Origin: Escherichia coli
GTDB taxonomy: Bacteria > Pseudomonadota > Gammaproteobacteria > Enterobacterales > Enterobacteriaceae
NCBI RefSeq assembly: GCF_003334255.1
Contig: NZ_QOWU01000207.1
Strand: one strand, 5' to 3'
Length of the DNA: 625 nucleotides
Positions within the stretch are counted from its first letter, which is position 1, and each line of letters begins with the position of its first letter. The position numbers and the translations under genes are program-made. Under the pieces are notes generated by a model, which ran no database searches, was not told the origin of the DNA, and was given only the letters and a program-made list of their open reading frames with translations. Below are positions 1 through 625 of the stretch, piece by piece.

Positions 1-43
1 GTTTTCAGCCCCCATCATCTGTTGAGTTTCGGGAGCCGCGGTT

Positions 44-277
44 TTGACGTTTTGCGGGGACCTGCTCTTTGTTCCCTCCGGTATTCACCATCACCTGTTT
101 GAGAACCTTCGCCGCATGGGGCATCACTGCCACGGCCTGACGCACCTGTCCTGGGCAGAACGCAAAATTTTTTACCGGGTTTTGGGTAAAAAATTTTGTG
201 GGCTGTTCATTTACCCTGGACAGGTGCGGCAGGTTGTGGCTGTATCAGCCCCCGGCGACAGGGGCTTAAACAGGTGA
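44..277 (+). CDS. Hypothetical ORF (77 aa, His/Cys-rich), probably spurious
   Basis: From the ORF track. It has a TTG start at 44 with a possible SD-like GGGAG at 31-35 (8-nt spacer) and a TGA stop at 275-277. The product matches no family I recognise, and the ORF is spanned by the 88-bp compound palindrome at 141-228, which is atypical for genuine coding sequence. Confidence 0.12.
   Translation: MTFCGDLLFVPSGIHHHLFENLRRMGHHCHGLTHLSWAERKIFYRVLGKKFCGLFIYPGQVRQVVAVSAPGDRGLNR
141..228. repeat. Compound imperfect palindrome: outer 15-bp GC-rich inverted repeat (14/15 matches) enclosing the inner AT-rich palindrome
   Basis: Read directly: 141-155 CGCACCTGTCCTGGG pairs with 214-228 CCCTGGACAGGTGCG, with one mismatch at 152/217 (T/T). 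The outer symmetry axis is offset by 4 bp from the inner one, leaving asymmetric internal loops at 156-160 (5 nt) and 201-213 (13 nt). The element can form an 88-nt extended hairpin or cruciform on either strand. Confidence 0.75.
163..198. repeat. Perfect 14-bp inverted repeat with 8-bp spacer: CAAAATTTTTTACC - GGGTTTTG - GGTAAAAAATTTTG
   Basis: Read directly: arm 163-176 is the exact reverse complement of arm 185-198, and all 14 pairs (163/198 through 176/185) are Watson-Crick. Spacer 177-184 is asymmetric. Each arm contains the self-complementary octamer AAAATTTT (164-171 and 190-197). Pair 161/200 (C-G) also matches, and 162/199 would be a G-U wobble in RNA. The arms are 11/14 A+T in an otherwise GC-moderate context. 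Confidence 0.9.
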
Positions 278-456
278 ATGGCACCGGACACAACAACGGG
301 CAGGGACCCGCCGCAACGACGTGAAGCGCGGTTTGCGAAACGGCGTTGCGCCTTACATCCCGGCGTCTTTTTGCCGGGATGCCTGGAGCGCAGGCCACGG
401 CGCGACAGAGGCGGCGCGACCGGAACGGTCGCTGCAAGCCCGGGGTTTTCACGCAT
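211..456 (-). CDS. Hypothetical ORF (81 aa, Arg-rich), probably spurious; the reading frame stays open upstream to 612
   Basis: From the ORF track, with ATG at 456-454. By my reading the same minus frame is open from 612 down to 211 but has no ATG, GTG or TTG upstream of 456. It overlaps ORFs in the other frames. No recognisable domain. Confidence 0.12.
   Translation of the reverse strand: MRENPGLAATVPVAPPLSRRGLRSRHPGKKTPGCKAQRRFANRASRRCGGSLPVVVSGAIHLFKPLSPGADTATTCRTCPG
247..266. repeat. Short stem-loop: 6-bp stem AGCCCC / GGGGCT with 8-nt loop
   Basis: Read directly: 247-252 pairs with 261-266; loop is 253-260. A stem this short has weak significance in GC-rich sequence. Confidence 0.4.
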
Positions 457-600
457 CGGACCGTAGCGACAGCCCGAAACCGCGCCAGCGGGTTCGGCGG
501 AGACTGGCGGGTGCGCCAGCAGCTGCCTGTCGGAGTCGGGCCTGACGACCGGATGCCGCCAGGCAGCCGGGAGCCGAAGGTGCGCCCGGCAGACAGGACA
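301..600. other. GC-rich block (about 71% GC by hand count) with several short stem-loops and no clear codon-position GC periodicity; candidate structured non-coding region
   Basis: Hand counts of GC by position modulo 3: 66/70/70% over 301-450 and 76/64/78% over 451-600, which is weak or absent periodicity. Stems seen: 312-318/344-350 (7 bp), 356-364/373-381 (9 bp), 416-422/426-432 (7 bp, loop GAA), 504-509/514-519 (6 bp, loop GGTG), 566-571/585-590 (6 bp). All three plus-strand frames and two minus-strand frames are open across 320-450, as expected for GC-rich non-coding DNA. GC falls to about 48% after position 600. Confidence 0.35.
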
Positions 601-612
601 ACACTGCAGTAG
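346..612 (+). CDS. Hypothetical ORF (88 aa, Arg-rich), probably spurious
   Basis: From the ORF track. It has a TTG start at 346 and a TAG stop at 610-612, with the frame open from 325. The product is Arg/Pro/Gly-rich, typical of out-of-frame reading of GC-rich DNA. Codon-position GC bias is only weak over 451-600 and absent over 301-450. Confidence 0.12.
   Translation: MRLTSRRLFAGMPGAQATARQRRRDRNGRCKPGVFTHRTVATARNRASGFGGDWRVRQQLPVGVGPDDRMPPGSREPKVRPADRTTLQ
356..381. repeat. 9-bp perfect inverted repeat / stem-loop with 8-nt T-rich loop (CATCCCGGC - GTCTTTTT - GCCGGGATG)
   Basis: Read directly: 356-364 pairs with 373-381 in 9 Watson-Crick pairs, 6 of them G-C. The loop 365-372 contains T5. 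No U-tract follows the stem on either strand, so it is not a canonical intrinsic terminator. Confidence 0.7.
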
Positions 613-625
613 TCAGAATCAGAGC

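Follow-up and report, generated by a model that had tools for sequence, protein, structure and literature searches.

Genetic context of the window

The window, i.e., the whole stretch of 625 nucleotides analysed here, belongs to the leading region of a conjugative F-like plasmid. It was 100% identical to pEC958 and many IncF plasmids and matched more than 5,000 plasmid records; among complete Escherichia coli genomes, 13,623 of the 13,780 matching places were plasmid-borne. Comparison with pEC958 revealed that the window is one copy of a dispersed repeat (Table 1). Of this repeat, pEC958 carries three copies, and each of them precedes an operon of the leading region; the identities to the window are 99.8% and 92.5%. 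In this plasmid, the window is located between a methyltransferase operon and ssb. The leading genes are all on the − strand of the window and directed toward oriT, which lies between an SLT-domain gene and traM; ssb, a parB-like gene, and psiB are downstream of the window on the − strand (to the left), with oriT beyond. Therefore, the + strand of the window is the template of the leading genes. The equivalent of this + strand in F-like plasmids is the transferred strand (T-strand), as is well established and has also been reported recently (Samuel 2024).

Table 1. Features located in the window.
Feature	Position	Strand	Basis or remark
Dispersed repeat of ~630 nt, one copy	1–625	+	Sequence comparison with pEC958
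Long imperfect stem-loop, class-1 ssDNA promoter Frpo2/ssp1b driving ssb	20–341	+	Nested repeats, fold, homology
Conserved single-stranded 5′ flank GTTGCGCCTTA	345–355	+	Base 355 is the final base of the published F ssiD/Frpo clone
hp1 hairpin	356–381	+	Inverted-repeat search, folding, comparison of paralogues and relatives
hp2, GCGCAG-GCCA-CGGCGC	388–403	+	Imperfect in the window, one A·G mismatch
hpB, GC+GCGACCG-GAA-CGGTCGC(T)GC	414–435	+	Covarying stem
Branched multi-helix domain	452–584	+	RNAalifold, compensatory changes

The left part of the repeat is occupied by a stem-loop of approximately 320 nt with its tip at about 177–184 and a minimum free energy (MFE) of −188 kcal/mol (z −11.5). 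Positions 9–355 showed 87.8% identity over 352 nt to F ssiD (D90178) in the same (+) orientation, and ColIb ssi3 could be aligned to the window only in parts. By its homology to F ssiD, its orientation, and the long stem upstream of the ssb/psiB operon, this stem-loop belongs to the single-stranded-DNA (ssDNA) promoters of class 1. The −35 and −10 boxes of Frpo2 found no reliable placement by eye, and a scan of the window for duplex promoters detected none. F ssiD is the Frpo element reported by Masai and Arai (1997). The copy upstream of ssb has been named Frpo2 (Couturier 2023, PMC9849209) or ssp1b (Fraikin 2026, doi 10.64898/2026.01.09.698686), and such promoters have been assigned to class 1 (Wen 2025, PMC12672017). 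According to published work, the F Frpo1/2 and pESBL ssi1–3 promoters are active only when single-stranded, the −35 and −10 boxes being rebuilt in the stem. Promoters of the Frpo type drive the first genes expressed on plasmid entry, i.e., those for SSB, the SOS inhibitor PsiB, and anti-restriction functions, and current models regard each of them as one long stem-loop. A group II intron (ltrA) splits ssb of pEC958 approximately 60 nt downstream of the repeat (L001 3426–5940, left of the window) and leaves a short N-terminal ssb fragment beside Frpo2; a further leading-region group II intron was seen in a Klebsiella plasmid (L126 16671–18430).

The Frpo stem is followed by a GC-rich block. Over the stem and the block, RefSeq/PGAP calls a “frameshifted single-stranded DNA-binding protein” pseudogene and several “hypothetical protein” CDSs. 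These calls, at window positions 5–210, 278–452, and 449–625 (L001 6005–6210, 6278–6452, and 6449–6691), are not the same in the three repeat copies and probably represent artefacts of annotation. Protein coding by 342–625 was rejected: the open reading frames begin in a different, unrelated upstream sequence in each copy, and the relatives show loop indels of 1, 2, 5, and 7 nt as well as substitutions paired across helices.

The distribution of the hairpin region was followed with the 53-nt segment 340–392. Across 5,426 complete E. coli genomes, it was present at 10,154 plasmid and 113 chromosomal places; 1,968 of the genomes (36%) had none, and those carrying it had a median of three. Thus 99% of the copies were plasmid-borne, at two to three per plasmid, and they were always within the Frpo repeat.

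Structure and conservation of hp1 and the adjacent helices

The hairpin at 356–381, noticed in a preliminary description made from the letters of the window alone, was confirmed as a perfect 9-bp inverted repeat that folds both alone and in the whole window. Its 5′ arm CATCCCGGC (356–364) and 3′ arm GCCGGGATG (373–381), 9 nt each and 100% complementary, are separated by the 8-nt loop GTCTTTTT (365–372). The T5 run that had been described as the loop is present, but it forms the 3′ part of the 8-nt loop rather than a loop of five T residues. On the + strand, an extra wobble pair G365·T372 is possible. When hp1 was folded alone with DNA parameters, the energies of the + and − strands were −11.3 kcal/mol (z −4.5) and −11.6 kcal/mol (z −4.8), respectively, and this stability was matched by one of 200 shuffles for the + strand and none of 200 for the − strand. 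When the whole window was folded, the MFE and centroid structures both retained the hairpin. hp1 had further been called the most stable local stem of the GC-rich block. It is indeed the longest perfect stem there and ranks at the top with RNA parameters (−18.3 kcal/mol, followed by 502–531 at −18.0 kcal/mol); with DNA parameters, however, hp1 (−10.3 kcal/mol) ranks below 410–440 (−11.9 kcal/mol) and 474–497 (−10.5 kcal/mol), and 502–531 has −10.2 kcal/mol. The sequence after the stem reads CCTGGAGC on the + strand and TAAGGCGC on the − strand, with a T-run in neither orientation, and a terminator scan of the window did not flag it. The earlier view that hp1 is not a standard rho-independent terminator in either orientation is therefore upheld.

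hp1 is a member of the repeat located just outside the minimal promoter. F ssiD ends at window position 355, and hp1 begins at the next base; the Frpo2-acrIIA4 construct, which is functional in vivo, spans only 1–263. Both published constructs fire without hp1, and hence the hairpin, though part of the repeat, is dispensable for promoter firing; neither promoter nor priming activity was found to require it. A homologous hairpin, CACACC-GTCA-GGTGTG, is contained in the published ssi1–3 units of ColIb-P9 (Bates 1999).

The paralogous copies of pEC958 have identical hp1 stems and different loops, and the arm pattern of hp1 occurred three times in 32 kb of plasmid, compared with 0.04 occurrences expected by chance. 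For a wider comparison, leading regions from Salmonella, Klebsiella, Edwardsiella, Enterobacter, Raoultella, Citrobacter, and E. coli plasmids and 120 metagenome loci were collected, giving 122 distinct copies in total. A hairpin at the position of hp1 was identified in IncF and IncI1 plasmids, in Klebsiella, Salmonella, Citrobacter, Edwardsiella, and Raoultella, and in metagenomes. Plain MAFFT alignment of the 122 copies followed by RNAalifold did not recover hp1 because the variable stems were misaligned; we instead used hairpin calling in each sequence and a covariance model. Hairpin calling distinguished 35 stem/loop versions with stems of 5–13 bp and loops of 3–10 nt. Over these versions, 275 pairs were Watson-Crick, 25 were G·T (mostly loop-proximal extensions), nine were other mismatches, and none was A·C. 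The IncI1 version is the hairpin known from ColIb-P9, with CCTTA as the conserved left flank and ..GGAGCGCAG as the right one.

Compensatory changes affected both arms. Examples are the change from CATCCCGGC/GCCGGGATG to CATCCCGCC/GGCGGGATG and that from GTGCCGGC/GCCGGCAC to GCACCGGC/GCCGGTGC, and two Edwardsiella paralogues had AGCCCGGC/GCCGGGCT and AGTCCGGC/GCCGGACT, respectively. Pairs were swapped from G-C to C-G (L170), from T-A/G-C to C-G/A-T (L204), and from C-G to T-A (L241), and the two paralogues of one Edwardsiella plasmid (L127) differed by C-G versus T-A. The covariance model was built of hp1, hp2, and hpB, and 65 matches were aligned to it. In this alignment, 94.3% of the cells were paired, compared with 80.2% in shuffles (0 of 500 as high) and 23–57% in slid controls, and double changes were found in 23 of the 24 pairs. 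For hp1, all nine pairs showed compensatory double changes and 93% of the cells were paired; the corresponding values were six of six pairs and 88% for hp2 (helix 2), and eight of nine pairs and 98.9% for hpB (helix 3). Pairing kept by compensatory changes exceeded the controls in an alignment that was itself fitted to the model and in which some divergent rows put a different upstream hairpin into the columns of hp1. Judging from these sequence comparisons, hp1 is a selected structural element in which the pairing rather than the sequence is under selection. A single-copy sequence with unconserved pairing had been named in the preliminary description as what would speak against the hairpin; hp1 is multi-copy and its pairing is kept by compensatory change, and therefore this objection does not apply.

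A scan of genome contigs with the 16-mer CGACCGGAACGGTCGC gave true matches only in Citrobacter (L025) and in two contigs filed as Streptomyces morookaense DSM 40503 (L035 and L036); other matches to the 16-mer were dismissed as chance hits in GC-rich genomes. L035 and L036 carry the repeat with 87–91% identity to the window, and this enterobacterial repeat is most likely an assembly contamination. The scan of viral contigs yielded no match.

The helices to the right of hp1 vary in a similar manner. hp2 is perfect in IncI1 (GCGCCG-TTTC-CGGCGC), and hpB appears in relatives as GCATCCG/CGGATGC, GCAGCCG/CGGCTGC, and GTGGCCG/CGGCCGC. The branched domain consists of a closing helix (452–454/582–584), an inner long-range helix (456–463/537–545), and the hairpins 474–497, 502–531, and 546–573, and its single-stranded junctions GGTTCGGCGGAG, GACGAC, and GGAGCCGAAGG are invariant. 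RNAalifold on 18 diverse sequences predicted 34 pairs in this domain, 17 of which had compensatory double changes. Within it, GGTTCGG (491–498) could pair either with CCGAAACC (474–481), as in the predicted hairpin, or with the conserved CCGAAGG (573–580), a possible case of alternative pairing or a pseudoknot.

The GC-rich block is approximately 95–99% identical in more than 5,000 plasmid records. Window 385–582 was 91.6–93.6% identical (BLAST) to the IncI1 copies L003/L004 1501–1725, with long invariant runs, and the identity between the IncF and IncI1 Frpo stems was 72.9–75.7% over the alignable stretches only. The near-identity of the block beside diverged stems suggests, from the alignments, module exchange or a very strong constraint. 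An IncI1 copy of the ssi1 type (L247 2440–2810) retains the Frpo stem, hp1, and hp2 and then ends abruptly at the border of GGCGCGACTG and AAGAAAAACG, without hpB and the distal domain. Because this copy stops after hp2, hp1 and hp2 move together with the promoter unit, from which the remaining structures can be separated as a module of their own. A second, unrelated distal module (..GCGACAGCCTGGGATGGAAACCCGCTGCCC..GGGCAGAGACAGCGCAGCTGGCTCGGTGCGAAGCATGACAGCCCCGG..) substitutes for 452–584 after hpB in some copies (L129 15449–15791, L025 3219–3532, and L127 10759–11017 and 13948–14185).

An Rfam search of the window returned nothing at 342–625; three sub-threshold miRNA-like matches, all at the tip of the Frpo stem, were discarded as chance noise. 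Inspection by eye for a Chi site, a conserved CTG primase start, and an n′-site revealed none of them, which is a weak negative for each. Neither hp1 nor hp2, hpB, or 452–584 came up as a described structure in full-text searches of the accessible literature for the element motifs and for work related to Frpo. The known system at this locus is that of the Frpo/ssi ssDNA promoters, of which hp1 is a component.

Folding strand and possible roles of hp1

The kinds of non-Watson-Crick pairs differ between the two strands. On the + strand, G·T pairs outnumbered A·C pairs by 19 to 4 over hp1, hp2, and hpB, and among the wobbles occurring in at least six distinct sequences, the whole block had eight G·T and one A·C. 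A G·T wobble on the + strand corresponds to an A·C mismatch in the mRNA-sense strand. With DNA parameters, the + strand was the more stable one in 56 of 60 cases for hp1–hpB and in all 18 for the distal domain; with RNA parameters, the counts were 33 of 60 and 15 of 18, respectively. These results provide moderate evidence that the folding molecule is T-strand DNA. The evidence is only moderate because a deamination bias could contribute: if C-to-T deamination proceeds faster on the + strand because it is frequently single-stranded, its G·T counts could rise without selection. The loops of hp1 are T-rich on the + strand (42% T, compared with 13% across the block), and those of the CCTTA-type copies have G as the first and T as the last base, allowing extra G·T pairs on the + strand only. 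Loop T-richness was left out of the strand evidence because A-rich loops, as they would appear in the RNA sense, are also common.

We propose that hp1 may act as an accessory “foot” hairpin of the transferred DNA strand beside Frpo2, a role drawn from comparative evidence that we regard with about as much confidence as doubt. The T-strand, i.e., the + strand of the window, enters the recipient single-stranded; the stem-loop of Frpo2 folds on it and recruits RNA polymerase, and ssb and psiB are transcribed leftward. hp1 would form as the strand enters, 14 nt past the 3′ foot of the Frpo2 stem, followed by hp2, hpB, and the branched domain. By folding there, it could shield the imperfect base of the promoter stem against competition by the GC-rich 3′ flank as well as against invasion or destabilisation by SSB. 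Together with its neighbours, hp1 may also tune how the complementary-strand polymerase, which arrives from this side, reaches and silences the promoter. Against such a role, the strand bias is modest, with the + strand favoured in barely more than half of the cases for hp1–hpB when RNA parameters are used, and the − sense RNA would fold into nearly the same hairpin. The conversion timing reported for F, 162 s upstream and 155 s downstream of ssp1b, indicates no extra delay across this element, and therefore a strong roadblock is unlikely. More tentatively, hp1 might be helix 1 of a folded DNA domain of approximately 240 nt (342–590, comprising hp1, hp2, hpB, and the branched domain) that would be functional only on the transferred single strand, with control of replisome or primosome access, exclusion of SSB, and binding of a host or plasmid factor as candidate roles. 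Such a domain, joined to class-1 ssDNA promoters on thousands of resistance plasmids, would be the equivalent in structured DNA of a non-coding RNA.

The main rival to the accessory DNA hairpin is a role as RNA in transcripts that read through from the upstream operon. The mRNA-sense (−) strand can form CAUCCCGGC-AAAAAGAC-GCCGGGAUG, which might stabilise a 3′ end or act as a pause or termination element sparing Frpo2 from read-through polymerase. The position, past the end of the last ORF annotated upstream and ahead of the next promoter, suits this explanation, as does the fact that within the window no canonical terminator lies between the two operons; in a class-2 ssDNA promoter region of the same plasmid, a canonical hairpin and T-run terminator occupies the equivalent place, and operon ends are thus marked there. 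Moreover, the − strand folds equally well alone (−11.6 kcal/mol), and the hairpin is very stable as RNA (RNA parameters gave −18.3 kcal/mol for the sequence of the + strand). We nevertheless consider the RNA role rather unlikely, as a U-tract occurs in none of the variants and both the wobble asymmetry and the strand energies favour the + strand, whose recurrent G·T pairs would be A·C in such an RNA. A DNA element of another kind, in which hp1, hp2, hpB, and 452–584 form a barrier or timer on the T-strand that slows the complementary-strand replisome before Frpo2 and prolongs zygotic induction, would agree with the + strand bias and with the location of the structured block on the 3′ (template-upstream) side of the promoter, where DNA synthesis arrives. 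A precedent exists in the stem of ssp2, at the base of which synthesis stalls and UvrD is needed for resolution. The barrier, and likewise its variant of a priming or primosome-loading site, appears unlikely to us: F shows no measurable delay across ssp1b, a 9-bp hairpin is trivial beside a 320-nt stem, the block is not among the independent ssi signals of F, ssiD ending before it, and inspection by eye showed neither a conserved CTG nor another motif of the primase type.

Two further explanations dispense with a folded single strand. If the palindrome had no function of its own and merely hitch-hiked with the Frpo repeat, being kept uniform by gene conversion, concerted evolution of the paralogous copies (92–99.8% identical) and a promoter that works without hp1 would be accounted for. 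The compensatory double changes in every pair of hp1 and the maintenance of pairing between unrelated stem sequences are not, and the shuffle and slide controls already point against neutrality; we regard this explanation as very unlikely, including its variants as a REP element, opposed by the almost wholly plasmid-borne distribution, and as an intrinsic terminator, opposed by the lack of a T/U tract on both strands. Finally, a dimeric protein could bind hp1 as a palindrome of duplex DNA once the plasmid is established. The inverted repeat is perfect, symmetric co-change of half-sites can mimic covariation, and the leading-region ParB-like protein, of which a ParB/RepB-family gene is conserved nearby, or a host factor would be candidates. 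Such a site is highly improbable, given that the arms range from 5 to 13 bp and the spacers from 3 to 10 nt, that the sequences are unrelated among plasmid groups (CACACC, ATCCCGTCG, GTGCCGGC...), and that the asymmetry of G·T and A·C is unexpected for a duplex site.

The context that the preliminary description had missed, the foot of the ~320-nt Frpo/ssi stem-loop in a conjugative leading region, explains the hairpin. Selection on pairing extends beyond the promoter, with small hairpins and a branched domain kept folded beside Frpo, apparently on the transferred DNA strand, and hp1 thereby draws attention to a folded-DNA module that is conserved among the most widespread resistance plasmids. 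If these structures tune the single-stranded time of the promoter or the priming of the strand, they would represent a new layer of control over plasmid establishment, and IncF and IncI plasmids would share a conserved target. If they are dispensable, the result is a mere annotation of a known repeat, though still an argument for removing the “hypothetical protein” calls of PGAP from this region.

Comparison with known systems

hp1 shares its locus, repeat, strand, and gene context, upstream of ssb, with the class-1 Frpo/ssi/ssp1 promoters, and the hairpin lies within the published ColIb ssi1–3 units. However, the functional element described in that system is the long stem-loop with reconstituted −35 and −10 boxes, and hp1 is outside both F ssiD and the Frpo2-acrIIA4 construct.

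Intrinsic terminators resemble hp1 in having a GC-rich perfect stem, here of 9 bp, a short loop, and a position between operons. hp1 differs from them in that its T-run is in the loop and that neither the window nor any variant has a T/U tract after the stem, whichever strand is read; with no T/U run within 0–2 nt of the stem, hp1 was rejected as an intrinsic terminator. Small perfect GC hairpins were also observed on the T-strand 3′ side of the class-2 region upstream of the antirestriction gene (L002 10300–10760, where the − strand is the T-strand). The hairpin GGCGGGG-ATTTA-CCCCGCC of that region has AAAAA before it and is a canonical intrinsic terminator in the mRNA sense.

REP/BIME elements are likewise short GC-rich palindromes, and a REP-like unit had been suggested from the superficial likeness of CGCCTTA..CCGGC to REP half-sites. 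REPs are present in hundreds of chromosomal copies. hp1, in contrast, is almost confined to plasmids, with two to three copies in each and only 113 chromosomal places in the 5,426 genomes, and the likeness falls in the 5′ flank and the 5′ arm rather than in a REP-type stem; the REP suggestion was accordingly abandoned.

Structured ssDNA replication signals include the ssi/primosome assembly sites of the G4 and phiX174 types, the minus-strand origin of M13, and ssoA of rolling-circle plasmids. In each, several hairpins are clustered and function solely when the DNA is single-stranded, be it an entering or a displaced strand, as proposed here for the T-strand. They have no sequence similarity to 342–590, and the ssi screens of F gave ssiD, which ends at 355; we know of no priming activity of 342–590.

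An analogy to a role beside the promoter is the roadblock at ssp2. The ssp2 stem-loop stalls synthesis and prolongs zygotic induction (Fraikin, Yamaichi & Lesterlin 2026, preprint, doi 10.64898/2026.01.09.698686). Like the module proposed here, it is folded T-strand DNA of the same leading region that affects the processing of the incoming strand, but it is a non-homologous long stem-loop of class 2 with the stall at the base of its own stem, and no stall has been reported at ssp1b. By analogy, the roadblock at ssp2 sets a precedent for folded T-strand DNA having roles other than that of a promoter.
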